64,000 nt of DNA from Takakia lepidozioides (lineage: Eukaryota > Plantae > Bryophyta): assembly GCA_030704615.1 (NCBI GenBank), contig CM060731.1, positions 67,270,001 to 67,334,000 of the forward strand, written 5' to 3'. This document shows positions 1-61,210 of the stretch, piece after piece. Position numbers and translations under genes: made by a program. Numbering within the stretch: position 1 is the first letter of the stretch; every line of letters begins with the position of its first letter. The notes beneath the pieces were generated by a model. The model had not been told where the DNA came from, made no database searches, and saw only the letters and a program-made list of their open reading frames with translations.

Positions 1-632
1 TCCTTCTCTCTTACAGGCATTTGAAAGCTGTCCTTGTTTGTCCTGGGCAAAGACTGTAAGTTTGTCTGGCCAATAGAGGTTGCTCTATCAAAAGCTCGCG
101 GACTTCCTAGTGGCTCTGCAATAGAGTAGCATGGAGTCCTCTCCCAATCTATCTGTGTCTCTTTTTCTGGCATGTGGACCTGTTTTATGATTGGTGCAGC
201 TGAAACTCCTCCAGAATGTCCATCCTTCTCTCTTACAGGCATTTGAAAGCTGTCCACGTTTGTCCTGGGGAAAGACTGTGTGTTTGTCTGGACAACAGAG
301 GTTGCTCTGTCAAAATCTCGCGGACTTCCTTGAGTGACTAGTGGCTCTGCAATAGAGTAGCATGGAGTCCTCTCCCAATCTATCTGTGTGTCTGTTTCTG
401 GCATGTGGATCTGTTTTATGATTAGTGCAGCTGAAACTCCTCCAGAATGTCCTTCCTTCTCTCTTACAGGCATTTGACAGCTTTCTACGTTTGTCCTGGG
501 CAAAGACTCTGTGTTTACAGTCTGCACAATAGAGGTCGCTCTATCAAAAGCACCCAGACTTCCTCGAGTGACTACTGGCTCTGCAATAGAGTAGCATGGA
601 GTCCTCTTCCAATCAATCTGTGTGTCTGTTTC
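1..632 (-). repeat. In-frame coding tandem repeat, about 3 units of 222-234 bp (74-78 aa), inside the B3 gene
   Basis: tccttctctcttacaggcatttga recurs at 1, 223 and 454. Spacings of 222 and 231 are multiples of 3. Unit reads ETDTQIDWERTPCYSIAEPL..FDRATS..QMPVREKDGHSGGVSAA. Confidence 0.9.
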
Positions 633-1718
633 CCAGATTGAGTCACCTACATAATTGATCAAATGTTCATGCATCTCTGCTTGTGGTGACTGGCTATATT
701 TGTGACACTTTTCCAGGATCCTTGGCGGAGTATGCAGATTTGTCGTCTCAATTGGTTTCACAGTACTGATCATTACAGGGCTGCCTCCATTCAGGAGTTC
801 CTCTACACTTGTGTCCCTGCACTTCTGTTTAGCAAGAATGATTGCCCTCACTGATTGACCAAGTTGAGAGTTGGGATTGTCCCTTGAAACTTCTTCCTTA
901 ACCAACAGAGTGAGTCTGGGCTTTTCTTCGGAAAAATCCAAGTATGGTGTGTCCTCTTCCTCATAGATGTGTGTTGTTGCTGATCCCAAAGGCTTACTGT
1001 CGGGATTTCCAGGCCAACAGGGAGTCCTGGTGACAGACTCCATTTTGTGCGAAAGGAGGGTCCGAGAAGAAGTTGGAGGAGCCAATACTGCAGACTTGAA
1101 GGCAGACATAGGTACCCCATCAAGGCCTGAGTGCTCAGTCTTCACATAGGGGGAATTAACATCCATAATCTCTGTCCACCCTGCAGTGCATTTTGCCTTG
1201 ATATCAATGTTTCTCTCCCCAAAAGTAAGAGTCTCACTGGCATCAGATGACCTCTTTGTTTCAGCAAGGAGAGACCCCGTGAAGAGGACTTTGGAAGACC
1301 TCTTTAATTCTGCAGAGAGAGCAGCCTCAAAGTCTCTGTCCTTCCTCTTCCCAGTCAAAGAGCCACTACTGCAACCTTTCTCCAGCATGCCTGTCCCCAA
1401 TAGAAATGGAATGGAACAAGACCTAGCTTTTGTGGGACCGCCACAATTTTTCTGAGGTGAATTATTCTGCCTCTCGCAGCCAAATCTATCAAATATACGT
1501 ACTGAGAAGTGTGACTTGGCGATGAGTGTGAAAAGTAGCAACTCTCCTTTCTTAAGAAGATGGTAAGAAGCGAAAGCCTTCCACCCTTTTGTGAAGGCCA
1601 CCGTAGAGTAGCAGGGGCTTTCAAGGCACACGTTGAAGGTCTGCCCACATGGTCCTTGAATCAAAACGATCTCCTCTACATTCATTCCACTGCGTTTTAC
1701 AAACACCGAGGGTATTTG
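1..1718 (-). CDS. B3-domain (REM/VRN1-like) protein, one long exon running off the window's left end
   Basis: Manual translation from splice acceptor tccag|CAA at 1718 is open to position 1 (>570 codons). It begins QIPSVFVKR..VLIQGPCGQTFNVCLE..VAFTKGWKAFASYHLLKKGELLLFTLIAKSHFSVRIFDRFGCE, the B3 signature (IP.F / GW..F...H.L..G..L.F / V.IF...GCE). Upstream exon(s) not resolved. Confidence 0.85.
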
Positions 1719-2896
1719 CTGGACAAAAGACCACAAACGAGCTTGATTTAGAGACCATTTACACATCCCAATCCCCTAAAGAGAACCGTATTAAACTAAG
1801 ATCCCAACACTTGATCCCATCCATACTGTGGTAACATTTGAAGTATAATTCAACATCCACTTGTTATGAATAACAGACTAGAGAGGGATAGACGAGCGAA
1901 TAGAAATTCTCCTTCCTATCACTGCGCGCTGCAATACTAAGCTGTAATTAAGTTCTTTGTAGGCATGCTTAGCCCCTCCGCTCTAACACGGCCATGCGTG
2001 GGTTTCTGGGTCACTCAAATGTGAAGTTGAGGTCTGATCATTGTCACTCAGGCAAGATTGTGGAGAAGTGCGAAAATATTCTTACCATCAATACCGGTCA
2101 CAATAGTCGTGTAAGATTAGACGAATAGATCCCACTATTTGACAACAATCTGTCTCTCAGGATGCGCTACAATATGAGCTGTAAAGAAATGGATACGTAG
2201 CATGCTTGGCCCCTCCCCCTTAGACGGACTGTGAAATGGAAGGTTGACTGCAACATGTGGAAATGGAAGATGAGTACACTTTTGAGAACAGGCAGAGGTA
2301 GCCATCGCGTGGGGCCAACCCACGCCCCGAGACATTTGTTAAGTCCGTAGCGAATGTCTCGTCACAACTCAGATACAACCAACTTCAACCGAAGAACAAC
2401 ACGTCAGGAAAAGATACAAGACAGAAGAAGAAAGAGGTTTGTTGCGTATATGGACACATGTGGCTAGATTGAAGAAATCGTACCATCCTGCAATAACCGA
2501 TGCGATATACAGCACTTTCCACCATAATCTTGTAAAAGCAGAGCGGCTGAGCTCCTCCAGCCTCCTCCACAGTTTGTGCCTCTCCACTGATGCATTCCGT
2601 TACCTCAATCATCGTATACCGAAGAAAATATCTCCTGCAATGTTGAATCAGTCGTCGCACCAACGGCTTCTTGCTGCTGCCTGAAGTGAATCGAGCCGTG
2701 AGTCCCGTGAAATAACTCAGACTGCACTTTGGCAGGTGAGGGAGTCGATTGAACAACTCAATTACACAACAGAGGCATGTTTGACAACACACCGCGTTCA
2801 CCTTACTGCTGCTGCATTACAAACTAGAATTGGAGGCTTTGGACAGGGACCTATAAGTACATAGACCTGCTGCACAGTACAGCAGCACGGCCTCTC

Positions 2897-7001: not shown

Positions 7002-9022
7002 ATTTGGCTATATCTCCCTTAAGCCTAATGGCTATGGCCCAGCTTCCGCCCCCATTGCGGGCTGCAATGGCGGCTAGGCAGGTCCGACTTGTGAAGCAAA
7101 AAGAAAACACAAAAAGAAAAAAAAAACAAGCCCTTCCATATTTTTCCCAAGCTCTTCCTCTTGCTTAGGGATTAATGGGATTAGTATGGTCCTTTTGGCC
7201 TTTGGATCTGCTGGTCTTGCTATGATCAGTCCACTTCCGAGCTGTTTTTCAGCTCCACCTCTAACGAGAATAAAAGAAAATCAACACTTGCACATATAAA
7301 TCGACTGCCTTAAGCCTTTCCCTTGGTACTTGGTCTTATAAGGTCTGTACCCCTTCAATCATGAACTCTTTCACATATGGAAATACAAAGATTTCTCTCC
7401 TCTTCAAGAGGACTAGTTTTTCAAGCAATTAGAAACCAACCAATTCTTGGCTTGGCTTAAGATACAAATGAAATCTACTATCATTTAATATGAAAAAGTG
7501 AAGTTGTAAATCACCCTTTAAGCGCAAATGGTGCTTGTGATGCTCTACTAGCTCGATGGTATGGTAATCCTTGCGACCCTTCCTTGGTGCTCGTCAAGCT
7601 TGGTCCACCCTCGGCCTTCCTACTCGTCTCCAAGTCTCTCACTCCACACTTTGGCGTTCACAAATCATCCTTTATAAATACTAAAATGGCTCAATGGCCT
7701 CAATGAGCTATGACCTCTCCATTAGCTCTAAAATGCTTCCCTAATACTAGAGAGCTCAAGCTCTGCCTTCTAGGACCTAGGCTCTTTCTAGCCATACTAC
7801 CAAGCTAGATTACAACAACAAAAGCAAGAGGCAAGCAAATGAAACTAGGTGGCAAGAATGAAGCAAAGGTGAGAAGCAAGGGAGCCTTGCCTCTCTTTTA
7901 TACTACTATTTGGGGCTAATAAAAAACTATGAAATAACCATTAACATGCCCCATCTATTGGAAGACTTGTTGACTAAGAAATGAGATTAAACTAATCAAA
8001 TCTATTGGGAAACTTGTTGACCAAGCAGTGATAATTAATAAAATAGGGGAGCGATGGCGGAGCTGCGAGACGACCCCCAACGGTCTTCTGGGCACTTCCC
8101 CCATCTCTTTCAATACCTACGGGGCTCTCACTACCCTTGCAGACACCAGCATACTCAATCCCCCAAATCCAGCTTTCGCTAGATAGGCATATCATGTTTT
8201 CTCTTATATGTTATATTTTTTTCTCTCCATCTCTTCGTTATGGCAGTTCCTTCTATTGTTCTGATTCAACGTGATTCCTGTTCGAGGGTTCCACCTTTCT
8301 TCCGACTTTCCCACCACTCTAGCTTCATTTCATTATGTTCATCATCGGAGGAGTTTTTTTCTTAAATCCAATCTTGTTTTTTTTTTTTTCCATAGTTCAT
8401 CCCTTAGCCGGTCTCCCTCTTTCATCTCCTATAATCATTCAATACCCAAATGGATGTACTGGAGCCGTCTTTATTTATGAGACCCTCTCTCTTCAGTGCT
8501 TCCCGCTCTTCCCCGTTCCTCAGCTCGCCCCCTTCACTTACCCCTAATCCACCCTCTTGTTTATGCTCTAATCTTTTCTCGTCTGTTAGTCCAGTTGTCT
8601 CTTACTTATCTAACTACCACCATCGCCATCTTAGCTAGCCTCTGCCTTTTTCTTAGTCATGGGGGGTGAAGTTCAGCAGCGGGGTTCCTTCTCTTCAGTC
8701 AACTTTTACACTATCATTATGGCCTCGGGTTTCTACAATGCTCAGCACAGGGAGGCAAGGAGTCACGAATCCCCTACGGCGGTGTACAGCAAAGGAGACT
8801 CCAGCCCTCCACGGGGACTGGATTCTTCCAGGCCCACCAGGCGCGTTCCAGGCAATACTCAACCAATGCTCCAGTAAGACCCCCCCCCCCTTCACTTCAA
8901 GTCCCATTTCACCCATACATCCATTCTTCAAAATCCCGAGACTCGATTCCAATCCGGAGGAATTTCCTCACCCACTGGTTGATGGAGACTAGTCCAACGG
9001 CACAAGGGTACATCAGGAAGAA

Positions 9023-10857
9023 ATGGACAAGGATTACCCCTTGATTCTGTTGGATGTTGAGGACCTTCAGAAGAGGGTGGCAGCCATGGAGGAGCATGGA
9101 ATTCTGATTCATTTTCCAGGGAAAAAGGTCAACAGGGCCCATGTTCATGACTGGGCTATCAGACACCTTGGAGGCTCGAGCGAAATCAAACAAAGATTCT
9201 GTTATGCCAAAGGCCGAGGATTTTACTCAATAGTCTTCGAATCCAAGGAAGCTGCCAACCAAGCTCTATCATTCAACCCTCACACAAAGGGATTCAACGT
9301 AAATATCTTTCCGTGGTCATCTAAAATGGGCCATAGAAATGGGAAACTCTGGAGCCCCAGAATCATTTCGGTTCCATACATTCCAGATCAGTATTTACAG
9401 AACTTACCGAACATAGCCAACCACTTTGGCTCGTACCTGGGCTGCTTGGCTGTGTTTGATCCCCAAATGTGCACATTGAACCGAAGACATGACCCCTCTT
9501 GGGCTCTGTAACGATTGCATCCCGCCTCAACGAGACTGGACTTGCTAAGTTTGTGCTTATGATGCCCAATGAGGAAGCCTTACCGCAATATGTGAGGCTC
9601 CCAATAGATGAGGAAGACAACTACTTCACCATTCAACTCATTGAAGACACTACCTATTCTGGTTGCTTTAATTGCGGGCAACTAGGCCACATCAAGCTGG
9701 ATTGCCCATCAGCTAAGCGGAAGAGATCTCCTCAAACACCCCCTGCCACAATGCACAATCAAGGTTAGAGTCATGGACTGCCACAAGCATTGACTTCCAC
9801 CCTTGCGCTGGGGAACCGAGCCCCTCATCCACAACCAACAGCGGTATCTGGAGGTCAAACAATAGAGCCAGCAAATTTCTTGGACTCCCTACAATTCAGA
9901 CCCAGACCACATTCCCCCTCCAACTTGGACTCCACCCGAGACCCAATGCAAGACGAGGTCAGAGTTCATCAGCAAAAAAAACCCTCTAGTAGCAAAGACA
10001 AAGAAAAGATGGGAGAAGAATATTCAACAACACCTGTAATCCAGCTGACGAGCCCCTCTACCAAACGTGGTCCGCAAATAACTACATGTATCTCATGCGA
10101 TTCTTCCTTTGCTAATCTCTGCCTCAACACATGCTCATTTCCAAATCTGGATCTGCTCGGATGCTCTGCCTTGGAGACATTTGCTGCTCCCAAGGCCTCA
10201 TGCATCACACCGCTGATTTTCAGAAAAGGGAACCCCCTTGCAATCCTCATCACATCCGACGATTTGGAATGTGTTGAATCACTATGGGTCAAGACCAAGG
10301 ATGTCAAACAATTCATGAAAGCAAACCCGCCCAATAGCGGCCCGAAAATCTTGTTCAAATACAAGATTCAAGAATTTTTCAAGGCCATCCTGCCCCACTA
10401 CTTCTTGACACCTTCAACCAGAATTTCTTGGGGGGCTTACCTAGAAGATCATCCTGGATTAAGTTGCAGGCCATCTACCCAGGTGCTGGCCTTAATAGAA
10501 AAAACAGAGATATACAATACGCCTCCTCCTCTATGGGCAATATGGACCTACAGTCAATGGCTCTCAGCACCCAGGGGATGCCACCCACTTCAGATCAGGA
10601 ACCAAGACACCTTGGTTAATGGCTTCCAACTGTTATCGGCATTCATGGAGCTGGAACTAGATGAAGAAAACCACAGGATGGAGATACAAAGGACAAGGGA
10701 CTACATCAACGAAGTCAGGGCGGTAGACACAAACACAACTTTTTCGGCCTCCTCAGGGGCCAACGCGGTTTCCTCTCTAGACGACTTCAATGCTGACAAT
10801 GATCACCTGGCAGCAGCAGTTACCACCATGCACATCTCCCCTCCCCCCCACCAGTAA
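9023..10857 (+). pseudogene. L1 ORF1 (RRM-like + CCHC knuckle + ~350-aa extension)
   Basis: ORFs 9023-9511, 9499-9768 and 9790-10857. Confidence 0.75.
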
Positions 10858-11427
10858 CACAAGCCCCATCTCCCCACCATCAATCGTGGATGCCACTCAG
10901 CCACATGACAACATTCATCTTCCACTTGCAGTCCGTCAGCCCAGCCCAACACCCGACCCCCCCCCCAGGTTCTCTTCTCCCCCTCTCCATGTTTCTTCTT
11001 CCAAGTGCTTTCTAAAGACCCAGGCAGGTGCTAGATGCTTTGAGGAAAAGAAAAGTTCTTCTCGGGGAAAGCAAAGAGGCATATGCTACCAACTTTTGAC
11101 CTTGCAGATTGCATTCCCTCTGGTACACTTCTTGACTGACAGATACCCACAGATTGAGCCACTTTTTTCTTCGGGGTTTTTCCCCAAAGGAGTGGAGATT
11201 CAGTCCCTATCCATTTCCCGGGTGCCAAACGACCAGTTTCAGGCGGTGCCTCCCAACCCTCCCTCTGTCACCACTAGGGGCATCTTCATACAAATCGTTA
11301 AAAAAAAGCCAAAAACCACCACTCTCTTTTGTCTGGGTAACAGCCCTTAGACCTCGAAACCGCAAGGTTCAATTCTCCTCCCCACAAAATAGGCCATCAA
11401 ATTTGATACCATGTCCAAGCCTACCTA

Positions 11428-13700
11428 TGACTCCTGATGATACTCAATCTTCATTCCTGGAATCTTAGAGGCCTGGGGGCGGATGCTGCTTCCCTTAAAA
11501 GGGTTAAAATCAAAAACTGGCTGGCAACCTTCCTCCAAACTGACGCCATAGTCTTCCTGTAGGAGCATAAACTGGACTAGATCAAAATAGACTGCCTCAC
11601 AGACCACATGTGGCCTCTAGCCAACGCATTATGGAAACCAACTTTGGAGGGCACAAGGGGAGGAACAGCTATTCTACTTTCTCCCTCCCTTCAGACCTAC
11701 CTATCTGCTGATTCCATCTGGATCCCAGGCATAATCCAATTTTGCTCTATCACCCTTTCTAACAACTCCGGCACAATAGGCTTAGTGAACATTTACGTGC
11801 CAATTACACCAACTGAACGTGCTGAATTTTGGAGCACACTTAATTTGCTAGACTAACAGCTCAACCCTTTATTGACAGTTGGATCACTTTAATATGGTGG
11901 AAGTCCCTGGGGACAGAAGGGGCTTGGGTTCTTACAACCCCAATTCCGAGGAGATGGATCATTGGTTCTCATGTATTCAAAACCACAATTTGACTAAGGC
12001 TGTGCCAATCTTTGGCCAATCATCAAACCTTTCTTTCACCTGGACCAATAACAGAACACTTGTGGACCTCTGCGTGGCACGCTTAGACAGAGCTTATGTT
12101 TCACTGGATTTGGTTCAACTCTCTAGAAGGCTCCCCCAGGAGCCCATCCCTCTTGAATTTGACCATGCCCCAATCTCTCTTTCAATACAGTTTCCTGAAC
12201 CTCAGTGTCGTGGTAGGGGCTTGTATAAGATCAACAGCTTATTGCTAAAACTGCCATTATTCAAACTAGGACTTCAGCAAGCTTGGTTTCGAGCTAGGCT
12301 GAATAGTCAGAACCCCACAGACCGGTTTCTAGCAAAACTCAAAGCTATAAATATGGAGAGCCAGAAAATGAGTTTGAATCTCTCTATTATCAGGAAAAGG
12401 AAGGTAAAAGCACTTACAAAGAGCCTGAAAGTTTGTCAATCCAGGCTAGAGTCCACCCGCTGCGATGAGTTCACATACCATACCTATGTTGAAGCCAGAT
12501 GCAACCTTGATATCCACCACAAAATTCAAGAAAGAAAGCTCAAACTGCAGGCGGGAGTAAATTGGTCTACCAACAGCGAAAAGATGACAAAATATTTCTT
12601 CGATAAGACCAGATTACGCAGGGCTTCTCAGACCATCACAAAACTTATTGACCAATCTTCTGGCCCCCAAAGCCATGGCAGACCTATCCCGCAAGCATTT
12701 CTAGCAGTTGTTTAAAAGTGACATGCTGAGCCTCAATCCATCTCCCTCCCAAACCGCTTGCCAGGCCCACACCCCAACCATCCTCTCCGGTCAGAAAGCT
12801 TCATTACAAATTATGTCACCAAACATCCATCTCACCTGGTAGACTCAATGTTTGTCGATGACACCTTTCTTATGCTTCAAGCAACCCCAGGAAACGTGGA
12901 CAATGTTGGGGATACACTACAAACCTTCTGCCTAGCGTCAGGATTTAAGGTTAACTGGAACAAAACATCAGCCCTATTGGTTGGGGACCACTTAGTTTCC
13001 ACACTTGGAACCCCACCAACCTGGGGATCAGACAAAGGTCTCACTTGGCTAAAACCAGGAGAGTCCACCACCTTGCTTGGCTACACATTCGGTTTGGACC
13101 TCACAAACCACCATAAATTTGCCCCTATGATGGCAAAGCTCAAAAGGAAACTCACATACTGGGGTTCTAAACATCTATCCATTACAGGTCGTGTCTTAGT
13201 AGCAAACCAAATATGCCCGGCTGGCATATGTTTCTACTCATCATCCTGGAGGCCAGACTCTAAGCAACTCCAAGAGGCAAGACGTCTTCTTTGGAACTTC
13301 ATATGGGGGGCTCACAGTGCCTCTGTAAATAAACGGCCGCAGGTGGGCTGGAAGCAAATATGTCTTCCAAAAAAAAAGGTGGTCTGGGCGTTCTAGATCT
13401 GGAATCCCAAATCAACGCCCTACTTGGCAAATGGATCCCAAGGTTCTTAGGGCCCGAGGGGGGCTGCTGGAAATTCTTGGTTTATGATCACATTGTAGCA
13501 TCCTCTCCTCTCAAAGTTTCCACTTGGCAACCTTCATTACGCTGGATTACCCATGGGTTCAATCGTAAACCAGTTGGTTCAGCACTATGGAACAACATAT
13601 GGAGAGCCTAGGGCAAGCTCCGCAAACACCTGGTCAAAGCCCAACCCTCAACATTCTATGAAGTTCTTAGACAACATCTTTTTCTCAATACAAACATCCC
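11428..13700 (+). pseudogene. L1 ORF2 (AP endonuclease - partial RT)
   Basis: ORFs 11608, 11879, 12758 and 13360. The sequence jumps from the pre-RT linker (QTITKLIDQ) to the RT domain-4/5 region near 12660. Confidence 0.85.
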
Positions 13701-14550: not shown

Positions 14551-14867
14551 TGTCAAGTTATTTTATCACTAGTGTGAAGTTAGCTAGGAAATAGCTAGCT
14601 TTTATATATTGACATTTGGGATTGACCCAAGTGTCAATCCAGGGGCCAATACATGTTTGGGCACCTGACGTTGTTATCTTCACGGCAGATCGCGGTGGGC
14701 TCATCTTTCTCGAGTTGAGCCTCACCGCGTCTAGCTATGGCGCCGTAGTGTGGATTCCCCATGGCGTGGGGTGCACTTGGCTCGACTTAATATATGAGTG
14801 ATGTTTTCATGTGCAAGTATGTGAGTTTGAGAGAGCTTGTGTGATTGTATCATTTCTTTCCTTATCA
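14551..14867 (+). repeat. Terminal repeat 'A' (TGTC...TTATCA), a chain of stem-loops
   Basis: Homologous to 34613-34922, 31096-31412, 41846-42162 and, more distantly, 36862-37025. Confidence 0.9.
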
Positions 14868-14883
14868 CTTGAGAAAGATGAGC
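14868..14883 (+). promoter_or_regulatory. Putative self-priming primer-binding site
   Basis: CTTGAGAAAGATGAGC directly follows repeat A and is complementary to GCTCATCTTTCTCGAG at 14699-14714. It does not begin with TGG, so it is not a tRNA 3'-end PBS. Confidence 0.7.
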
Positions 14884-17098: not shown

Positions 17099-19800
17099 GT
17101 GCCACTAGTTGCTGGGGAAAGTGCCGGTACGAGCACTAGCGATACTAGCGGGTATACGAGACGAGGTGTGCGGTTTATGCTACCTTCACCTCTTGTGTCT
17201 TCTACGGAAGGTTCTGATTCAGATTGTGAATCAGGAGGACTCACACCGGCGGTGCAAGTTGTTTCTTTGCCATTGTTGTGGGATACAATGGAGGAGATGT
17301 ATGGAGCCACCAAGGGGCCACGAAGGTACTCTGGGGTGGTGGGCACCATTGAGTTGGATGATTTTATCCAAGAGTTTGATAGTTGGTGTAACTTGCAGCA
17401 AATGCGCAATCCACAACTGTTTACACCTTCCATGGCATGGAAGGGGCTGTTTCAGCACCTTGTGGGGCCGCCCCTGGATGATTATCATGAGTTTAGGTGG
17501 GGGCACGATGTTGAGATCGAGGAGTGGAGGATGTACTGGTCACCCGACTATGTCTCCATCACTAGAGGCACAAGGGCAGCAGCCACACCGGCAGCTGCAC
17601 CAGCAGCAGCTATAACAACAGCTTCCACGAGCAGTGGAGGGACTAGTGGTACAGCAACTACGACGTCCACCCAAACTACTACTGCACCAGCACCTGTGGC
17701 GGTGCCTGCCTTCAACCCTGTTGTGGAGTTCTTTGAAGAGTTGAGAAGGAACTACCAAGGGGTGAGGACAGAGAAGTTGAGGAGCTTGCAAGAGTTCCAA
17801 CGGAAGCCTACTGAGAGCTTGAGGGAGGCTTTCACTCGTATGAGGCGCTTGATAAATGTAACCCAAGGGGTTACGGAGGCTCAGGCAGTCCAGTTCTGGT
17901 ACGGGATATTGGACAATGAGTTGAGGAGAAGGGTGCGGGATACAACTCTCCTATAAGCGGCCCAACCCACCTTAGCAAATGTGTTTTTGCTGGCAAAGCG
18001 GATAGAGCTCAACATGGCGGACGAACGAGTGGTCATGGTGGGATTTGCTAAAGAGGCACCACAGGGTAGTGGTGCTCCTAGCCAGCCACTACCTCAACCT
18101 GCTCAAGGCAACAAGGGGGCTCAGGTGAAGCCCAGGGAAGGGCAGAGAGGACCTCAGATGCAGGGGTCTATCCCTTCATTTGTTGGCCAACAACGGGCGG
18201 ATATGGTGTGCTAGACATGTGGAGGACCCCATGTCAAGAAGGATTGCCCAGAGGGAGGTAATGGTCTGGCACCGGCACAACCTGCACAGTTGCAGTGTGG
18301 GCATTGTGGCAGGTACGGGCATGGAGATGCCCAGTGCTATGGTTTGCATCCTGAGTTGCGCCCAGGCCAGTTCCAAGGGAACAATGGTGGCCAGGGGTGA
18401 GGTGGAGCAGCCCAGAGAGGACGAGGTGGCCAGGCACGAGGTGCAGGCCAAGGGCAAGCTCAACATGGCCAAGGACGTGGAGGTCAGGGTGGTGACCAAG
18501 GCATGGCCAACCAGCTTCAGCAGCTAGAGCAGAGGCTTGTTACCATGGCCACAGCTCAGGTGGTACCGGCTCCAAGGCCGGATGGTCCACCTCCTGCTCC
18601 TGAGGGAGGAGACATGGGAGGCATGGGATTCATGTGCGGGGCAGCACTACCACTAATGAGGGGTGCCACTACCACTACCACTATGGGTGGGGCGCCACTA
18701 CCACTAGTGAGGGGTGCCACTACCACTACCACTGTGGGTGGGGCACCAGTACCACTAGTGTCGGGCAGCACTACCACTACCACTATGTGCGGGGCAGGAC
18801 TACCACTAGTGCAAGTGGAGTCAGCTGCGGCAATGACTCGAGGAGCAGCACGAGTTCCTGAGCCACGGGGTGCGGAGATGGAGTTGGATCCACAGCGTGG
18901 GGAGGCAAGCCGTCAGGTTAGGCTTCCTCAATCATTCACATTGGCGGAGACAGTGTTGACGCCATCCATGGCACCTAATTCTCGCCCGACTGTTACCGAG
19001 GCGGAGGTTACTATGCCATTGGGGAGAGCTACATGGGCAGCACCACTACCTAGTGTTGCCAAGGCTACGGCAGCTAGTGTGCTGCTAGGAGCGGCCACAT
19101 CTATGTGCCAGGCTCCATTGTTCTCGGCTACCATGATTGCGACATCGGGGGTAAGACCAGCTGAGGTGTTCAGGCTAGCAGCTACACTTTGTGAGAGTGG
19201 GGAGGTTACTTCATCTTCTGCGGAGGTAGTGGGAGGTGTAGTGCTGGAGGGATCTTCGAATTTGAGGGTCAAGACTGCCACGGTGGCGCCATGGCAAGCT
19301 GCAGCTGCAAGGTTGATGGAGCTGCCAGCTAGGCCAGCCATTGAGCGCGCCATGGTGACACCTGGAGTTGTCATGTTAGACAACCAGGATGACATTTTCT
19401 GTTTGAGTGGACCGGCAGGCAAGAGGTATCGGCCACTGCGAGTCTTGTTGGACTCGGGAGCTCAGCCATTGATGTTGGGCAGAGCTGATATTGCAGGCTT
19501 GGGCCTCACTGAGGTGGATATGGAGCCGTGCCCTTTCCAGATATAGACATCTTTGGGAGGATCAGAGCAAGCTCGGGGCATGATACGGCGTGAGTTGGCT
19601 ATCAGACTGCAGCCGGATCATCCTACAGATGGCTCAGTGATGAGAGCCAAGGCCATTGTGACAGACGCGGTCTCGTACGATGTTGTTGGTGGGGCAATGT
19701 TGTACCCCATGGGCTTCACCCTGGATTTTTGGGAGGAGTCAGCTTCCTATAGGCCTGGATGGCAGTCAGGGGAGGGCCAGCATGTGCAGTTCCCTGTGAC
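17099..19800 (+). pseudogene. Family A Gag (retrotrans_gag, two CCHC knuckles) + aspartic protease
   Basis: LQEFQRKPTESLREAFTRM..FWYGI; C*TCGGPHVKKDC and CGHCGRYGHGDAQC (18210-18345); protease VLLDSGAQP. One frame with in-frame stops. Confidence 0.9.
18635..18815 (+). repeat. 51-bp coding minisatellite (GGAPLPLVRGATTTTT) x ~3.5
   Basis: Visible in ORF 18503-19546. Confidence 0.85.
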
Positions 19801-20159
19801 GTTCATAAGAGGAGTTGCGGTTGCCCAGCGAGGCAAGATGCCAACACTGGCAGTATTCACAGCTGCAGTGACTTGGCCTGGAGAGTTGTTGAATGGCAAC
19901 ACTCATTCAGAGGATGTGTCACCTCCGGGAGAGCAGTATGACATGTATGGTATGGCGGAGTTGTCTGCCATGGTTGCTCACACTCCATTGTGGGGCTCGA
20001 GCAAGGATTTACTGCGGGTTGCTGATCGACGTGTGCAACAAGCCTGGGTAAAGGCTTTTGTACCGTTAGGAGAGGAGGACAGTGCGGGGATTGCACCAGG
20101 ACCACCTCAGTTGTCACCATTGGACACCACACCAATCGTGTGGCAGTGTCCGGATGAAG

Positions 20160-21100
20160 ACATTTGCATTCTGGATTTGTTTGGCGGGATCAGCACCGGA
20201 TTGGCTGCTGTGCTACAAGCAGATGTATGGGTATGGCGTTACTTGTATGTGGAGAGGGATGAGACTGCACGACGCGTCTCACTCCGTCATGTTGCTCAGT
20301 TGGTGCAGCAGTACCCTGAGTTGTTGCCGGTGTTTGCGGTTCGTGGATATTAGCAGGCCTTGCCAGCAGACATTTTGTTGCTGGGGGCGCAGGATTTGGA
20401 GCGGGTTGGCTCCATTGATCTGGTAGTGGCAGGTTGGCCCTGCCAAGGGCATTCATCAGCCGGGCATGGCAATGGATTGTGAGACTTGAGATCGGGTCTG
20501 TTTTGGGAGATGGTGCGGGTTTTGCGCCACTTACAGCTTCATCAAGCTGTATCTCCAGCATATATCTTGGAGAATGTGCCGCTGATGGGCGATTCTCGGG
20601 CTAGGGTCATGGCCAGTGTGCATCACGTCCGGTCATGGCTTGGATCAGCAGTGTTGCTGGGTGCAACTGCAGTGGGGTCACGGGCTCATCGTCCATGGCT
20701 ATGGTGGACTAACTTGATGTCACCCACACTGCTCAAGCGTGCATTTGATGGGTGCAGCGGCCAGCACACCTCACAGTGGATAGCATTTTGGACAGAGGGA
20801 GGCAGTCTCAACGTGTGAGACACGATGACCGTTTGCCTTTGGCAGTGGTCAATAAGGTGGGTCAACCACGAGCAGCACTATCTACACTGCTCAGCTTCCC
20901 AGGATCACATGCTTTTCCGGGATAATGGACCTAACCTCCTGTGGGATGCTCAGCTGCAATAGTTAGTGGAGCCTAATGCCAACGAACGAGAGTGGGCTAT
21001 GGGTTTTTCCACTCGGACCACGGCGGTGCATTTTCTTGCTGAGGCATCACGTCGTCAGGTGTTGGGGCAAGCGATGGATCTCAATTGCTTGATCTGGATT
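20160..21100 (+). pseudogene. C5-cytosine DNA methyltransferase domain (DNMT3/DRM-like) inside the retrotransposon polyprotein
   Basis: Motif I ILDLFGGIS; II YLYVERD; III LPADI; IV IDLVVAGWPCQG (catalytic PC at 20438-20443); SGLFWE; VI YILENV (20570-20578); VIII AHRPWLWWTN; IX EREWAMGF; X RRQVLGQAMD. Same frame as gag/PR. Confidence 0.92.
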
Positions 21101-21499
21101 ATCAGCTTGGCTATACGTAGAGTGCGGAGTGCACTTCCCTTGACGGTCTCTCTGCCTACTAAGATGGTACAGACAGTGAGTGGGGGCGAGCCGGTGAGGA
21201 CCACGGGGTGTATACATCCATGGCACACGTGGGAGGTGCTCGAGGTTCAGAGGGAATTGACAGCCAAGGCGGCTGTGATGGATGAGGTTGGGGATTCTTC
21301 TCGGGTTGAGGAGGTCCTCAAGGATGAGATGATGGGGCAGGATTAGGCCTTATCATTGACTGAGCAGGCAGGGAGTACTGCTCATGAGGTTGCGGCATAG
21401 CAACCACGGGACGCGTCTCCTACCTCTAAGTCTGCTGGACTTAAGGTTGCAGTTACAGAGGACAATTGGGAGCCTGACATTGGACCCATTGTCACTGAA

Positions 21500-22390
21500 G
21501 GAGAGAGACAACGTATACGGCGGTTCCTGAGGGCTTACAAGAATTGCTTTGCCTTCAGTTTGAAGGATTTGGGAGCACTGAAGGGTCAGGAAATTTGTAT
21601 TGAGTTGGCCACGGACACGCCAATCTTTCGGAGACCCTATAGATACAGAGGTCTTTGATTCAGATGAGGACTCAAGATCTCTGGGAGGCTGGTTTGGTAG
21701 AGCTCTCTGGAGGAGAGTATGCTTCAGCCACGGTGATGCCAGCCAAGAATGATGTCTATGGCAATTGGATGGAGAGACGTATGTGCGGTGATTACCGGCC
21801 TGTAAATCGTCAGACCAAGTCCGATAAGTATGCCATGCCCACACCTGAGGAGATCTTTGATGCCATTGGGCATGCCAAGGTCTTTGGCACTCTGGACTTG
21901 CGGTCCGGATATCACCAGTTGCCGATCAAGGAGGCGGACAAGCAGAAGCGAACATTCTGGGGGATCAATGAGCACGGGAAGGATTGTCTATATCAGTGGC
22001 GGTTCTTACCATTTGAGCTTAAGAACGCTCCTGCAGAGTTCCAGAAAGTCATGGACAAGATTCTAACAGGGGTAGACTTTGTTTGTGCGCTTGAGAGTGC
22101 ATGGATTGAAATTACATCCGGAGAAGTGCAAGTTCTTCCACAACCAGATTGAGTATCTGAGCCACATGATATATCCTGGAGGATTGGGGGTATAGCAGAC
22201 TAAGATGGAGGCCATTGTACATATTCCACGCCCCACAGATGTGAGCCGAGTTCGAGCTTTCATGGGGCTGTCATAGACGGTTTCAAGGGATTTAGTACTA
22301 TTGCAAAGGCTCTAACTAAGACAAGGTTTGTCAAGGGAGCCTTTAGTAGCTATTGTCAAAGGCCTATTACCAAGCTGATACAGATTGGAG
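21500..22390 (+). pseudogene. Family A reverse transcriptase (YxDD segment deleted) and connection
   Basis: RMCGDYRPVN, TLDLRSGYHQ, LPFELKNAPAEFQ, then YLSHMI..G. Frameshifted. Confidence 0.9.
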
Positions 22391-22890
22391 NNNNNNNNNN
22401 NNNNNNNNNNNNNNNNNNNNNNNNNNNNNNNNNNNNNNNNNNNNNNNNNNNNNNNNNNNNNNNNNNNNNNNNNNNNNNNNNNNNNNNNNNNNNNNNNNNN
22501 NNNNNNNNNNNNNNNNNNNNNNNNNNNNNNNNNNNNNNNNNNNNNNNNNNNNNNNNNNNNNNNNNNNNNNNNNNNNNNNNNNNNNNNNNNNNNNNNNNNN
22601 NNNNNNNNNNNNNNNNNNNNNNNNNNNNNNNNNNNNNNNNNNNNNNNNNNNNNNNNNNNNNNNNNNNNNNNNNNNNNNNNNNNNNNNNNNNNNNNNNNNN
22701 NNNNNNNNNNNNNNNNNNNNNNNNNNNNNNNNNNNNNNNNNNNNNNNNNNNNNNNNNNNNNNNNNNNNNNNNNNNNNNNNNNNNNNNNNNNNNNNNNNNN
22801 NNNNNNNNNNNNNNNNNNNNNNNNNNNNNNNNNNNNNNNNNNNNNNNNNNNNNNNNNNNNNNNNNNNNNNNNNNNNNNNNNNNNNNNNNN
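22391..22890. other. Assembly gap (500 N)
   Basis: Run of n. Confidence 1.
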
Positions 22891-30906: not shown

Positions 30907-31604
30907 TGTCGTGCGCATACATATCGCTACACAACTACATCGCTGTCCAAAAACCACACAAACATGTGCACACCACACACTAGTATACCACTAGTCCACC
31001 ATTAGTCCAGCCACTAGTCCAACCACTAGGCTACAACTAGTCAGTCACTAGGCTGCCACTATGCTGCCCACTATGGCAGTCACTAGTCCACACAATGATA
31101 AAGAAGAAGGATACAAGCACGAGCTCACAAATCTGAAGCATAAACTCATGCATATATAACCTCATCACTCAAATACAAGTCAAGCCAAGTGCACCCCACG
31201 CCATGGGGAATCCACACTACGGCGCCATAGCTAGGCGCGGTGAGGCTCAACTCGAGAAAGATGAGCCTTCCGCGCTTGCCGTGAAGCTAACCACTCCAGG
31301 GCCTAAATCTGCCTTGACCCCTGGATTGACACTTGGGCCAATCCCAAATGTCAATATGTAAAAGCTAGCTATTTCCTAGCTAGTTTCACACTAGTGGTAA
31401 AATAACTTGAAAGCTGTCGTGCGCATACATATCGCTACACAACTACATCGCTGTCCAAAAACCACACAACACATGTGTACACCACACACTAGTATACCAC
31501 TAGTCCACCACTAGTCCAACCACTAGTCCAACCACTAGGCTACAACTAGTCAGTCACTAGGCTGCCACTATGCTGCCCACTATGGCAGTCACTAGTCCAC
31601 ACAA

Positions 31605-31615
31605 TCGCCCCCCTA
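31605..31615 (-). promoter_or_regulatory. Polypurine tract
   Basis: TAGGGGGGCGA on the - strand directly before repeat B1 (TTGTGTGG..). Confidence 0.7.
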
Positions 31616-31863
31616 GCTGGTGCTTAGGTCCCTCTAAGTCCAGGTAGCCACAAGATGTGATAGTGACCATAGCCTCACTAAGTCCTCCACCACTATCCCT
31701 ACTACACTCAAACTCGATAGATCAAGAGGTCGGGTGCAAGAATTGCCCCATCGTTAGTCGCCGTCTTGCAACCTGTGAACTTGAGCTTGGGATCTCAAGT
31801 ATTGACTCCTATGAGCTTGGCCTCCCATGTCTTGTTAGCTGCCTCTAGTCATGTCCACTGCCA

Positions 31864-33075
31864 CTATCCCAAGCAGTGTGGACACAACCAATCTCCGTCA
31901 GGAACCTTCTCAAGAGGTGGTGTCAAGCATCCCATATGCCAACCCCTTGAGCATCGATCACACACCAGCATGGTGGCTGCCCCTTTGGCAGACCCACAAA
32001 GCATGTACCTCAAACCTGCAGGTACCACTGCCAAGTTTGGGTCAACTCTGCCATCGACATTGGGAAGGTGACATGGCGCACAATTACGCACATGGTCCTT
32101 CCAAGTCATGCCATCCCGACCCTCCAAGATCAGGACCCCTGAGGGCAACACCTCTCGAACCCTCAGAATAACACGCCTTGCAGTAACATCCAGAGTCGTA
32201 GGAGCAGTCTGCTGCAAATAAACATAGTCACTAGGGCTAAACCTCCGAACCCTAGGACGATATCCTCCACCACGTATAGTGGCATACCTCAACGTATCAC
32301 GGTGCTGTGCATTGGCAAGGTTCTCAAAAGCCATGGGCATGACTTTCTTGAACAACTCTGCACGTTGATCACATGCACGTACCCACACGTCCGGGTCGTC
32401 AAGGTTAAGGACTTGAGCAGTGTCCCTACGAATGGCTGCAGGCAAATCCGGCTCTCGGCCAAAGAGAAGGAAATATGGTGAGAAGGAGGCAAGTGATGCT
32501 TGTTTGCTGAACCTGTAGCCCATGGCTAACCAAGGAACCTGAAGATCCCAATCTCCTAGGTGTCCCTTCTGCAAGCCATACTTGCGCAAACCCCTCTTCA
32601 CCGTCTGAACAACTCTCTCTGCTAAGCCATCGGCCTCAGGATGATCCTGAGAAGTGGTGCGGTGGTCTATCAAGGCTTTATCACACAAAGCCTGAAACTC
32701 CCCCAAGAACTCTCTCCCTTGGTCCGTGAGTACCTCAGCTGGAGCACCAAATCGGCTAAGCACACGATCCAAGAATGCATACGCAACCCCCTCACTAGCC
32801 TTGTCAGGCAATGGAACCAACTCAATCCACTTGGAGAAGTGCTCCACCATCACCAACACATATCTGTGGTGGCGCATAGTCAGTGGCAACGGTCCTGCGA
32901 AGTCAAGACTCCACCTGTAGCCCAATCCCATGATTGGTAAAGGATGCAACTGTGGTGTAGGGGCGTTGAATGAAGCACGCACCCTGTCACACACCATGCA
33001 CCTAGCCACGAACTGTTGCACATCTGTATGCATACCACGCCACCAATACTGCCCCTGCAGTAAACTGTGAGTGCG
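31864..33075 (-). CDS. DDE integrase with C-terminal PHD finger (N-terminus deleted)
   Basis: YWWRGM..CMVC; D-D-E in WSLDFAGP, LTDQGREF, GLAERVV; PHD [Y]MLC..MLVCDRCSRGWHMGCLTPPLEKVPDGDWLCPHC (first Cys replaced by Tyr). Confidence 0.93.
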   Translation of the reverse strand, partial: RTHSLLQGQYWWRGMHTDVQQFVARCMVCDRVRASFNAPTPQLHPLPIMGLGYRWSLDFAGPLPLTMRHHRYVLVMVEHFSKWIELVPLPDKASEGVAYAFLDRVLSRFGAPAEVLTDQGREFLGEFQALCDKALIDHRTTSQDHPEADGLAERVVQTVKRGLRKYGLQKGHLGDWDLQVPWLAMGYRFSKQASLASFSPYFLLFGREPDLPAAIRRDTAQVLNLDDPDVWVRACDQRAELFKKVMPMAFENLANAQHRDTLRYATIRGGGYRPRVRRFSPSDYVYLQQTAPTTLDVTARRVILRVREVLPSGVLILEGRDGMTWKDHVRNCAPCHLPNVDGRVDPNLAVVPAGLRYMLCGSAKGAATMLVCDRCSRGWHMGCLTPPLEKVPDGDWLCPHCLG

Positions 33076-34922
33076 TCGCACTCCCCCTCACAGCCTCAAA
33101 GGCCTCAGGCACGGCCTGTCACAGCCCCTCACAGCCCATCACAGCCCCAAAGGCCATGGGCACAGCCCGTCACAGCCCCATCCATGGCCGCTCTGGCAGT
33201 TTAGCCATTTCTCCAAGGGGTTTAGCCACGCCAAGCGAGGGTTTGTGTCTCTTGGACTCTAGGCTTCTTTCCACCGAGCTATGGTGGCTGTGAGGAAATC
33301 AGCAAGGTATTCTTGCTCTTTCGGCTCCCACACACCACCATAGTAGCCCTAAGCCATGAGGTGGTTGCCACAAACCAAGCCTTCTTTCTCACTTAGCCTC
33401 CCCAAACACGCCACTAAACTCAATGGCAAACAACCAAGCCCTGCTGGTTCCCAGCCCTTGTGAGCACTCATTCAAGCACTCTCCTTGGCCATAGCATCTG
33501 TCTTAGAGCCTATTCCAGCCCCCTACACCTGCTGCTTCAAGAGTTGCGCTCCCTTCAAGCTTGAAGTTGAAACCCCAACTCACATAGGCCCTACAAGTGC
33601 TTTTCTTTCACTCCAAGTGGAAACCAGCCCTAGACCTTCCGTTCTATCTCTCAAAAGCTTGAAAACAAGAGCCTCAATGGGCTGAAGGCATGCTCCACAC
33701 ATGCCCCACTCTCACCATAAGAGAATCAGCTCCTTTGCTTCATTTTTTGCACCCACAAACCTGAAAATACAAGCTTCAGCAGGCTGAAAGCATGCTCCAC
33801 ATGCCCTACATGGAAACCAGCCCCTTCTTTCCTTTCTTGCACTCCCACACCTGAAAGTGCAAGCCTTCACCAGGCTGATAGCATGCTCCACACATGCAAC
33901 CTCTTCACACAAGAGATATCAGCCCCCTATCTTGGCTCCTTGGTTCCTTGATGCTCTCTAAGACAAGACTAAGCACTCCACACCCTTTGCCAAGCTCCTG
34001 AAACCCTAAGGCTTACATTTCCAGCCACAAGACACTTCTCTTGTGGTGCAAGAGCTCTTCTTCCAAGCTCTGAAACCCTAGGTGCACATTCCATGGCCTT
34101 GCCGCACCTCTTAGCTCCTGTTCCAGCCCTGCTCTCGCCATGACAAGAGCCCTCTCAATGCTGAAGCTCGAGATTGAAACCCAATCTCACCATACTCCAC
34201 AAAGTGCACTGATTTGCCCCAAGCCAAATCAGCCCTTTCGCTTGGTCTTGCAATCCTTCACACAATGAAAGCTCGCATTCCCAAGTCCAGTTCTCAACTT
34301 TGCCACCAAAGCCACTATAACCTGCTCTTGACTGGTCCTCTTCCCAATCGTGCTTGCTCATGCATGTACACAATCTGAAACCATCAAGGTGCTCTGGAAT
34401 TACCTGTAGTATGGTGCTTTCATCTCTGAAGCTGAAGATCGAATGCCAAGGTTTACCACCTCGTAACCCACATCGCCTCCGCTTCTAACAACCAAGAGCT
34501 CCACGGTGCTCCTTGCATAACAACTTGGTTTCTCTCATTCTCAAGCAAAAACCACAAGTGCTACAACTAACTCGTATCTAGCACTCATAGATACGAGCTG
34601 ATCTTTCTCGAGTGATAAAGAAGAAGGATACAAGCACGAGCTCACAAATCTGAAGCATAAACTCATGCATATATAACCTCATCACTCAAATACAAGTCAA
34701 GCCAAGTGCACCCCACGCCATGGGGAATCCACACTACGGCGCCATAGCTAGGCGCGGTGAGGCTCAACTCGAGAAAGATGAGCCTTCCGCGCTTGCCGTG
34801 AAGATAACCACTCCAGGGCCTAAATCTGCCTTGACCCCTGGATTGACACTTGGGCCAATCCCAAATGTCAATATGTAAAATTTCCTAGCTAGTTTCACAC
34901 TAGTGGTAAAAATAACTTGACA

Positions 34923-38600: not shown

Positions 38601-38934
38601 TGCTCATACAGTCCTCCATAGTCCCCTCATCTGGACAACTTCTCATCCGTGCTTCATCCAACGTTCATCCATTACACTTTTACGTTCATCCCAAATCCAT
38701 TCATCCGTGGATGTATCATCGTGCATTCGTGCCACTTTGTCATCATGGAGCCTGTCTCTCTTCGGTCCGATGGAGCGGAGACTGCGTCTTTGCAGTGAAG
38801 TTGGCGTCCACGGAAATAGGCCCACTTGTCCCCACGGTTTTGGGGTCCGCAAGCGAAATTTGCTCACGCTTTGATTCTGCTCACGAATCCAGGAATCTGC
38901 TCACAGGTTCTGCTCATGGCTTTGCTGCCATCTT

Positions 38935-41900
38935 CGAAGAACTCCACAATAGGGTTGAAGACAGGCACAGTCACTGGTGCTGGTGCAGCAGTAGCTTGGG
39001 TGGACATTGTAATTGCTGTACCACTAGTCCCACTACTACTCGTGGAAGCTGTTGTTGCAGCTGCAGCTGCTGGTGCAGCTGCCGGTGTGGCTGCTGCCCT
39101 TGTGCCTCTAGTACCTCTAGTGATGGAGACATAGTCGGGTGACCAATACATCCTCCACTCCTCGATCTCAACATCATGCCCCCGCCTAAACTCATGGTAA
39201 TCATCCATGGACGGCCCCTCAAGGTGCTGAAATAGCCCCTTCCATGCCATAAAAAGCGTAAACAGTTGTGGATTGCGCATTTGCTGCAAGTCACACCAAC
39301 TATCAAATTCTTGGATAAAATCATCCAACTCAATGGTGCCCACCGCCCCAGAGTACCTTGGTGGTCCCTTGGTGGCTCCATACATCTCCTCCATTGTGTC
39401 CCACAAGAATGGCAAGGAAACAACTTGCATTGCCGGTGTAAGTCCTCCTGATTCACAATCCGAATCAGAACCTTCCGTAGAAGACATAGGAGGTGAAGGT
39501 GGCCTAAACCGCACACCTCGTCTCGTATACCCGCTAGTATCGCTAGTGCTCGTACCGGCACTTTCCTCGGCAACTAGTGGCACCTCCGTGTTGACAAACT
39601 GACACTCAACCGGTCATGAACATGTCCCTAACCCCTCTCCACAAGGTAACCGGGTAGAGAACCTGATGCGGCTTATGGTTTGGAATACTAGGTTCCTAAC
39701 ATAACCTGCACCTGCACCTGCATCCACCGCATGCACTCCTATGGTTGGCTGGTCATCACCTCCAACCTCACCACAGGAGAAACAAAGATGGTCTGATCGG
39801 TCATCAACCTAGCCTCACCATCGGCAGCATGCTCTAGGGTTGGATCGGCGATCAAGCCCGAATCAACCACCTATAAAATCAAGCGCCCATACAAAACTAG
39901 CATGGCGCACAATCAAGCATGCAGGTGTGGAGGGGATCCAAACACAAGAATGAAAACAACAACTCCCCCACACAAAAAACAACTCCACAGTGTCGCTCCT
40001 GCAACCCAGCCCAAACCCGGACTGACTCTTGCCTCCACCCACGGAAAGGTCTCGGCCTACAGAGAATGTGGAAAACTACAAGGAAGGGAAGCTAAAGCAA
40101 TGCCTATCCCCAGCACGCTCTCGTCCCAACACCCTTTTTTTTCCTCTCTTCTCTCACTTGCATGACCATGAGAGCATCCTGTAGACACTCCTCAAACCAC
40201 CCTCCACGAGCTCATGAAACTTGGCCTCCAAGGCCCCATGCAAGCCTCCACAGGGTCCGCCAGTGCCTCCTTATGTCCACCAGCCATTCCTCAGAATAGA
40301 ACCATCTCATGAAACCACACCATTCGCTGAAGGTTAAAAAATGGAGCAAATAAAGGTACATATAGGCCCCCAACAACCTTCTGTCCAAAGGAATTACCTG
40401 CAGGCTGGTCTCCCCCATAGTTAAGAATTGGGCTGAAAACCCGAAAAGATTACCTACAGGGAAGTAATCCCCTTTGTTAAAATGCAACAGGGAGGCAATT
40501 CCGACTTTTCTGCCGGATCAGCTAGCACAAAACCGTTGTTCTTCAGAGCCCAGCCTCCCCATCAAGGTCCCACGAATCGAGTGATTTTTATTTATTTATT
40601 TATTTTTTTTCACTCTGCCTATTCGCGGTCTTCCGTGGCTCTAACCGCCACGACTCCTCACAGCCCGCCCTAGGCACTCGTTGGCCAAGGGCTGCCCCCT
40701 GATACCCCGTGGTACCACGCCCACGAGCCTTCACGGCCCGCCATCCCCACGATCTGGTCACCGTGCCAACCCGTGGTGTCCGCACCACTGTTCCCACGGT
40801 CACGGTCAACGGTCACGGTCAACAGTCACGGCCTGGGCTCGTGGTGTCTCGTGATGCCGCCCCAACAGCCCATCACGGCCACTGTTCCCTGTGTTCCCTG
40901 GAACTCCCAACGAGTTCCCATGCGTTCCCGGACGTTCCCACACGTTCCCAAGCTCTTCCCGAGCTGGGGTTTGCTCCTGCGCCTGCAGCCGACGAGCTAT
41001 GGCTTCTGCAGAGCCATCAGCCCCGTCGCCCTGCACTCCTGAGCTCTCACGGCCCACTAGAAGCGCCCCCAACTCAACAAGCAAGCCATATGCTGCCCAA
41101 CAAGCTCCATTTTCTCCATAAAACTTAAAAAAACAAATCTGAAAATACACACTTTTACAACTTTGGTGTACCTGCAGTTCTACTGCACAATCCCTGGCTC
41201 TAGGACGCCTTGTTGCTGCCTTTCCAGCCCCTGCTCTTGCCACTCCAAGAGCCCTTGTGCTAGAGTTTTAAATTGAAACTTCCAACTCAAGCACATGCTG
41301 CTTCACAAGTGCATTGATTTGCACACAAGAGGGACCAGCCCCCTCTCTTCACTCATACCTCTTCATGAGCTTGGAGCTGAAGCTCCCAACGGGCTGCGAT
41401 GCATCCTCTCGCAGCTCCACTATTCGGCTGCTCCTCATCTACCCGTAACAACTAGTTTCGGGTAGAAATACCTAAAGCCGATTATATCATCTCCAACCTG
41501 CAACACGCTAGCTTCCCATGTGCAGCTCCTTAACTCGGCCTGCAGCTGAAGAAGACGACCACCAGTTCGCCCACTCGTGGCCAGTGTCTCCTCCGCTTCA
41601 CACTAGAAGCCCAAACTTGATTGCCATAGCGTTGAGCTATGCAACGCCGCTCTTCAACATAGGCTACCCGCCTCTCTATCCATTGCAAATCTGCAACCTG
41701 TTCGCCTTTGCACTCTATCCGCTTTGGATAGACTCATGCACAGATCCCTGCACTCTAGGCTAAACCGCTTCCCATGATCTGAAAACACAAGTGCTACAAC
41801 TAACTCAAACCTGGCACTCACAGACTCGAGCTGATCTTTCTCGAGTGATAATGAAAGAAATGATACAAGCACACAAGCTCTCTCAAACTCACATACTTGC

Positions 41901-42162
41901 ACATGAAAACATCACTCATATATTAAGTCAGGCCAAATGCACCCCACGCCATGGAGAATCCACACTACGGCGCCATAGCTAGACGCGGTGAGGCTCAACT
42001 CGAGAAAGATGAGCCCACCGCGATCTGCCGTTAAGATAACAACGCCAGGTGCCCAAACATATATTGGCCCCTGGATTGACACTTGGATCAATCCCAAATG
42101 TCAATATATAAAAGCTAGCTATTTCCTAGCTAACTTCACACTAGTGATAAAATAACTTGACA
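38935..42162 (-). mobile_element. Family A copy 3: A repeat, PBS, 5'UTR, gag N-terminus (3'-truncated)
   Basis: Reverse-complement homolog of 14551-17740. Terminus ..AATAACTTGACA at 42162, PBS at 41834-41845, gag ORF 38864-39583. Confidence 0.93.
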
Positions 42163-61060: not shown

Positions 61061-61179
61061 CCGTTGTTCACGTGCAGGAATTGCGTTGTCGAGCGCAGCG
61101 TCACGTTGGAGTAAGTAAGCAAGCAAGTCAAGTAGCTCTTGTGCGCAACCCACTCCCTGGGCGCGGAGAAGAAGAGCAG

Positions 61180-61210
<31 letters not shown>

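Follow-up and report, generated by a model that had tools for sequence, protein, structure and literature searches.

An unpermuted DNMT3-type methyltransferase in a land-plant Gypsy retrotransposon family, encoded ahead of a conserved stop in a readthrough-type context

The window analyzed here, the whole stretch of 64,000 nucleotides, contains a decayed Ty3/gypsy retrotransposon in which a DNMT3-type C5 cytosine methyltransferase lies between the protease and the reverse transcriptase, and which belongs to a family found with the same domain in liverworts, mosses and algae. In the clade of the window copy the methyltransferase is followed by a conserved stop whose context matches a viral readthrough signal. 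We propose, with a probability of roughly 0.55 for the reading as a whole, that ORF1 encodes Gag, protease and DNMT3, that a minority of ribosomes would read on into reverse transcriptase, RNase H, integrase and a PHD finger, and that enzyme packaged in excess would methylate the element's own cDNA.

Several lines of evidence identify the domain at 20156..21115 (+) as an unpermuted DNMT3-type methyltransferase that is closer to DNMT3 than to DRM, DNMT2 or bacterial enzymes. The seven C5-methyltransferase motifs listed in the preliminary description all lie where it had placed them and in the canonical I-X order: LDLFGGIS at 20171, VERD at 20249, GWPCQG at 20432 (Cys at 20441), ENV at 20570, HRPW at 20687, EREWAMGF at 20984 and LGQAMD at 21062. 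Against PF00145 (cut-off 22) the translation, read with X for each stop, scores 44.5 bits with an E value of 1.8e-11, and the domain is 60% identical to the family. In a search of solved structures, human DNMT3A was the only protein matched at E<=0.001 (16 of 16 sequences). A ranking profile built from ten intact relatives and the window sequence scored the catalytic forms of DNMT3A/B/C at 71-81 bits, DRM2 at 45-55 and HaeIII/HhaI at 33-41, and the predicted structure of one relative (pLDDT 90) matches DNMT3A over its full length with an E value of 2e-19 and a TM score of 0.72. The DRM2 match is permuted, with profile positions 2-132 falling on DRM residues ~229-353, in the C-terminal part, whereas the order in the window is unpermuted, as had been claimed. 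Of the original label "DNMT3/DRM-like", the DNMT3 half is thus retained and membership in DRM is rejected. The absence of introns from the domain is also supported. Among the family matches that cover each position, 90-98% retain the catalytic residue: Cys in 199/203, Glu in 217/229, and the two Arg in 207/230 and 210/226. The enzyme is quite probably catalytically active in land-plant copies.

The window copy itself is dead, with stops, two compensating frameshifts and a lost catalytic arginine. It begins with an LTR-like repeat A (TG...CA; 14551..14868, +) whose TGTC start agrees with two sister copies and whose end was set by comparing the two A repeats of the sister copy at 30907-34922; only the first A is present, and the 3′ end is lost at the assembly gap. 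Gag, which opens ORF1 at 17288..18004 (+) with one decay stop, is 57% identical to the Gag of a Calypogeia cluster and reaches Retrotrans_gag at E 4e-4, below the cut-off; a start at 17099 had been suggested, and the homologous start is 17288. Translation places two CCHC zinc knuckles at 18209..18337 (+), the first interrupted by a stop, and the aspartic protease region at 19343..19807 (+), with LLDSGA at 19445, is 59% identical to the family protease. The relatives match Asp_protease_2, and the 73-aa protease piece of the window searched alone against Pfam gave no match. The stops at 20351 and 20480 on either side of the PC motif were confirmed, and additional ones lie at 17954, 18212, 18398, 19544, 20960, 21344 and 21398. 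The methyltransferase had been described as sharing one frame with gag, the zinc knuckles and the protease; the net frame is indeed shared, but it is interrupted where compensating frameshifts at ~20749 and ~20920 shift roughly 57 codons into another frame. HRPW and EREW have arisen by decay from the H-R-x-R and ERER of the family, the second arginine of motif VIII is missing, and most differences from family contigs are C-to-T/G-to-A changes of the decay type. The reverse transcriptase (21482..22273, +; RVT_1 E 2.6e-10, also found by tblastn and translation) carries a frameshift near 21645 and has lost its YxDD stretch; it is followed by the gap at 22391-22890, beyond which lies another Ty3 family.

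Two further copies lie on the reverse strand. That at 30907..34922 is internally deleted, with the order A, integrase-PHD, PPT, B, A, B; its A repeats are 100% identical over 268 nt, rve, H2C2 and PHD are all matched, and it is flanked by a 4-bp target duplication. It is young and non-autonomous, and sits in another Ty3 element between RNase H and integrase. The second, at 38931..42162, is 3′-truncated (A, leader and the start of Gag) and 90% identical over a blastn alignment of 3261 nt. The only host genes recognized are an intact, intronless PLS-E-DYW PPR gene at 50216-52726 (-) and a B3-domain gene at 3-1775 (-); the rest of the window consists of nested retroelements. The N-terminal stretch of the PPR protein is matched by 6 of its 150 top relatives (five Diphasiastrum, one Sphagnum) at ~30% identity; its C-terminus is nearest to Ginkgo (69%), and relatives in gymnosperms and Sphagnum are otherwise 53-55% identical, so that the PPR gene points in part to the clubmoss Diphasiastrum and in part to gymnosperms and Sphagnum. 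Two LINE-like elements with RVT_1 matches lie at 57200-61400 (-) and 8657-13400 (+), the former presumably with a reverse transcriptase of CRE/RLE type. A search for tRNA genes across the window found none. The PPR and B3 genes and the place of the element among liverwort and moss copies show a land-plant host, as first proposed.

That the domain belongs to the polyprotein of an element family and is no captured host exon is borne out by relatives in several genera, the same Gag-protease-DNMT order being present in Marchantia, Calypogeia, Sphagnum and Closterium. Homolog searches returned 31 longer homologs (among them Marchantia, Calypogeia, Sphagnum fallax and Closterium), 59 polyproteins including Monoraphidium and Hariotina, and 295 near-length matches, of which the 120 listed include Riccia, M. 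paleacea, S. troendelagicum and Chromochloris and no vascular-plant name; no Klebsormidium-named sequence was among the matches returned. Marchantia polymorpha has many loci, with one cluster of 18 members, and 80 of 323 metagenome loci were kept. Streptophyte-type copies have the order Gag-PR-DNMT-RT-RH-IN-PHD, while in the group that includes the named chlorophytes the DNMT follows RNase H (RT-RH-DNMT-IN-PHD); every complete relative has a PHD integrase. A Monoraphidium protein of the post-RNase H type (P0071) has a Tudor-like domain behind the PHD finger, and a DIRS-like polyprotein (P0031) combines a Dam domain with its C5 DNMT. Loci L046-L078 form a second, distant peat-moss-type DNMT3-Gypsy family, ~39% identical and encoded in one open ORF, so that two DNMT3-Gypsy lineages coexist in peat-moss-type samples. 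Three members of this plant/algal element (L111:2235-3209, L112:3001-4011 and P0161) are filed in bacterial MAGs, one of them annotated as a bacterial DNA cytosine methyltransferase; contamination during binning is the likely explanation. In run X1, 53,554 of 3,038,600 contig records map to the 8-kb element stretch, a count that is not a copy number; X1 may be the window's own source. All 30 element bins are covered in that run, and the DNMT bins fall within the range of the Gag and RT bins with no dip.

Phylogenetic analysis suggests that the methyltransferase has been inherited together with RT. The DNMT tree (LG+G4, rooted on a DIRS-like protein) has 50 rows, selected out of 157 near-complete domains and 80 loci; the RT tree has 32, with the short second RT fragment of L041 (38% filled, on a long branch) disregarded; some deep joins carry long-branch warnings. 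In the DNMT tree the window copy lies inside a clade of liverwort and peat-moss copies supported at 100/100, and its sister group (97/96) consists of stop-bearing copies. The RT tree recovers the same grouping at 100/96 and 100/99, and the post-RNase H group is supported at 96/91 (DNMT) and 91/93 (RT), so the two trees are congruent in their main groups. The rows of both trees are element-borne sequences, with no host DNMT3 and no Klebsormidium copy among them. The selection analysis, run between lineages rather than within the host, gives dN/dS values for the DNMT domain of 0.10-0.13 between the window copy and four peat-moss-type loci (dS ~2), 0.10-0.14 within the sister clade and 0.10-0.17 between lineages overall, which shows purifying selection between lineages. 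The ratio rises to 0.25-0.58 when young decayed peat-moss-type copies are compared with one another, and there it equals that of RT. Synonymous sites are near saturation relative to the peat-moss-type copies, so the window is not from Sphagnum and its element is no recent transfer from that genus. DNMT3 probably entered the lineage a single time, in an algal ancestor of the green plants, and has since been passed on with RT; the stop ending ORF1 would have arisen later, in one clade.

The methyltransferase had been described as part of one polyprotein continuing into the reverse transcriptase. That view is not supported for the window's clade, in which a conserved stop with a readthrough signal closes ORF1 behind the DNMT. 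Because this stop separates the DNMT from RT, the DNMT forms the end of ORF1 (Gag-PR-DNMT). The in-frame stop with its CAR-YYA context (21398..21406, +), a likely readthrough site, is a feature of the family and not decay: it is kept in relatives, and four runs list no difference of at least 8% across these positions. The stop at 21344 is private to the window copy, with >99% of the depth in runs differing. ORF1 proteins of Marchantia and of the Calypogeia cluster end 94-100 aa past motif X, and the conserved stop is the only one in the PR-to-PHD frames of L031 (1731 codons), L035 (1728 codons) and L111 (6.2 kb). The exact UAG-CAR-YYA is present in these three loci, in L037 and in the window, and the degenerate bases and second residues differ among them; of the 5484 stop triplets in the window, only 13 have the CAR-YYA context. 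Among peat-moss-type junctions, 27 of 28 (19/19 in-frame loci and 8/9 found by motif) carry a stop at this site and continue into RT in the same frame. The context there is CAA CCC, which departs from the consensus at one base and has an ATG after it, and 6 of the 19 in-frame copies have UAA. In the second peat-moss-type family 7 of 16 junctions are stop-free and the others have scattered stops, and Closterium-type proteins have no stop between DNMT and RT; the stop arrangement is therefore not required. At one locus (L023:6960) a tyrosine codon replaces the conserved stop, tyrosine being the residue that TMV inserts at readthrough.

In MLV the leaky gag-pol stop is placed before the protease. 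The same position is described for Tca2, whereas here the stop follows both protease and DNMT. The sequence CAR YYA is a plant readthrough signal, with reporter efficiencies of 6-32% (6-10% in transgenic Arabidopsis and 32% in transient assays)(PMC2754532), and UAG-CAR-YYA is the type I signal of TMV, where it determines how much of an extended, polymerase-bearing product is made relative to the shorter one (PMC2754532, PMC4132726). The present case differs from TMV in that the host of the signal is a retrotransposon, the stop stands behind a protease and a DNA methyltransferase, and readthrough is predicted from sequence. With the same context retained in distant copies, it is quite likely that ribosomes read through the conserved stop in a minority of cases.

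The same element might instead bypass the stop by splicing, or start translation of the RT ORF separately. Ogre elements splice around a stop, public gene models of two relatives jump the stop via predicted introns (P0010 in Marchantia, P0025 in Sphagnum), and the ATG of peat-moss-type copies, two codons past the stop, would suit separate initiation. However, the two models skip at different places, and the ATG is missing in the window, L031, L035 and L037. The reading frame is continuous over the stop, with an offset of 1272 nt in intact loci, and the exact CAR-YYA has been retained across lineages despite saturated synonymous sites. In addition, a 2173-nt contig from a run guessed to be RNA crosses the junction unspliced, and a skip is seen in only one DNA contig. 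We therefore regard bypass without readthrough as unlikely. A different proposal, that a dead copy here picked up, as a single event, a recent host DNMT exon or a bacterial or phage methylase, draws on the decay of this copy and on matches to 30 viral loci and two prokaryote-genome loci. It is refuted by the family-wide occurrence of the domain: the nearest relatives are all carried by elements (52-61% identity in liverworts), DNMT and RT trees are congruent, and dN/dS is ~0.1. The viral matches are partial and generic, spanning only motifs I-VI/VIII at 31-48% identity with RT or integrase nearby in 0 of 30, and both prokaryote-genome matches are retrotransposon contigs of 9-10 kb with RT, RNase H and integrase; a viral or prokaryotic origin is rejected accordingly.

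Where the enzyme acts is the question on which the main rival to cDNA methylation turns. An active DNMT might work in trans on chromatin, at the insertion site, on sibling copies or on competitors, with the PHD integrase as guide. Enzyme made at Gag level would far exceed the need of one cDNA, a PHD integrase is present in all complete relatives, and the element is not depleted in CpG. In the test for CpG/CHG depletion, the observed/expected CpG ratio is 0.47 for the element and 0.57 for its DNMT, above the 0.18 and 0.24 of two DNMT-free Ty3 pieces in the same window, and so there is no self-methylation footprint. Against action in trans stands established retroelement biology, in which Gag fusions are directed to the particle, and on balance we consider it rather improbable. 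For methylation of the element's own cDNA, which we judge slightly better than an even chance, support comes from the position of the domain and from analogy with SymbioDIRS-Dnmt3, a related TE-borne Dnmt3 that methylated CG in yeast (PMC5890265). The closest characterized enzyme, KnitGypsy-Dnmt3, gave no methylation in yeast, a result its authors judge inconclusive (PMC5890265).

The termini of the family are TGTC...GACA, 4-bp target duplications surround all 7 of the 7 copies for which the two flanks were read, and the repeat order is A-coding-PPT-B-A-B, the A-coding-B-A-B arrangement being seen in the sister copy at 30907-34922 and in L029, L041, L054, L055 and L064. Of 30 loci scanned, 10 have an att-like palindrome, GACA-NN-TGTC, at the inner B|A joint, and in the sister copy this palindrome is slightly decayed; at the A|B joint the end of A is fused directly to the base after the PPT. 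A circle of two LTRs joined end to end and opened at one B|A site would leave such a B-A-B end. On this model A-B-A-coding-B insertions are expected as well; none were found among loci with both ends, and an A-coding-B form (L017) is equally explicable by B-B recombination. An arm of 10-17 nt just 3′ of the first A complements a site 145-180 nt inside A, and arms of at least 10 nt are present at 7 of 8 5′ ends, in three families of unrelated sequence. In the window this arm occupies the primer-site position (14871..14883, +) and is a 13-nt perfect complement of 14699-14711. The priming region folds at z -4.9, and we infer self-priming of reverse transcription. A primer-site arm complementing an LTR-internal site is likewise found in the self-priming chromoviruses Tf1/Sushi and Tcn1 (PMC6317226), and a PHD finger occurs in another green-lineage Gypsy, Gypsy-7a_cRei of Chlamydomonas (bioRxiv 2022.06.16.496473); the accessible descriptions of these elements report neither a DNMT nor a B-A-B end. 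No chromodomain was found in the window's family. Membership in DIRS/Ngaro is rejected on the basis of the rve integrase and 4-bp duplications, as opposed to a tyrosine recombinase without target duplication.

In the mechanism we favor, ORF1 would encode Gag, protease and DNMT3 and end at UAG-CAR-YYA, and readthrough would yield the RT-RNase H-integrase-PHD extension at a fraction of the Gag level. The DNMT, likely produced at Gag level, would enter the particle in excess and presumably be released by the protease. Its likely substrate is the double-stranded cDNA, which it would methylate, probably at CG, ahead of integration, so that insertions would already carry the mark; the integrating form would be the two-LTR circle with joined ends, opened at the internal B|A palindrome. 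Taken to its full extent, this becomes a more tentative scenario, possible rather than probable, in which a Gypsy lineage spanning the green plants captured DNMT3 once and kept it from algae to land plants, in this case perhaps a vascular one, one clade came to encode it together with Gag before a leaky stop of viral type, and particles loaded with DNMT mark circular cDNA before the integrase opens the internal att site, giving pre-methylated insertions.

The nearest described system is KnitGypsy-Dnmt3 of Klebsormidium nitens, a Ty3/gypsy element with an intronless, unpermuted Dnmt3 under purifying selection and DIRS-like A-coding-B-A-B repeats (de Mendoza et al. 2018, PMC5890265). All of these features are shared by the window's family and support the kinship suggested at the outset, a likeness by description and not by sequence. 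The differences are the land-plant host and the conserved stop with its readthrough signal. According to the authors in the peer-review file, the KnitGypsy-Dnmt3 DNMT lies in one ORF with RT and RNase H (PMC5890265); such a single open frame is found in the second peat-moss-type family and in Closterium-type proteins and not in the window's clade. The accessible text on KnitGypsy-Dnmt3 is silent on PHD, protease, priming mode and target duplications. SymbioDIRS-Dnmt3 of Symbiodinium also has a Dnmt3 in a retrotransposon polyprotein with split direct repeats, but is a tyrosine-recombinase element, whereas the present family has a DDE integrase, TG...CA ends and a 4-bp target duplication. The species table of PMC5890265 includes Physcomitrella and Selaginella and lacks Marchantia, and later papers cite the Klebsormidium finding merely as "streptophytes" (PMC12344493, bioRxiv 2026.05.21.726589). 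The accessible parts of PMC8226279, bioRxiv 2021.11.30.470311 and 2021.02.12.428880 hold nothing on the DNMT3-Gypsy family. A Gypsy-borne Dnmt3 is thus known from Klebsormidium, and the land-plant family and its conserved readthrough-type stop appear to be new, no report of either having been found in the literature searched, which excludes subscription papers and Repbase.

The role of element-borne DNA methyltransferases has been open since 2018 because their hosts were dinoflagellates and one alga. Since many near-intact ORF1 copies are present in Marchantia polymorpha, a model for genetics in which methylation mutants exist, that role becomes testable; Mp4g09160 and Mp5g06330 are examples of naturally intact ORF1s there. 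Bryophyte annotations list family ORFs, unrecognized, as "hypothetical proteins", and DNMT3 counts can be inflated or confused by them. The leaky stop leads to a sharp prediction for the biology of the family, namely that the enzyme would be made at the level of Gag and not of RT.
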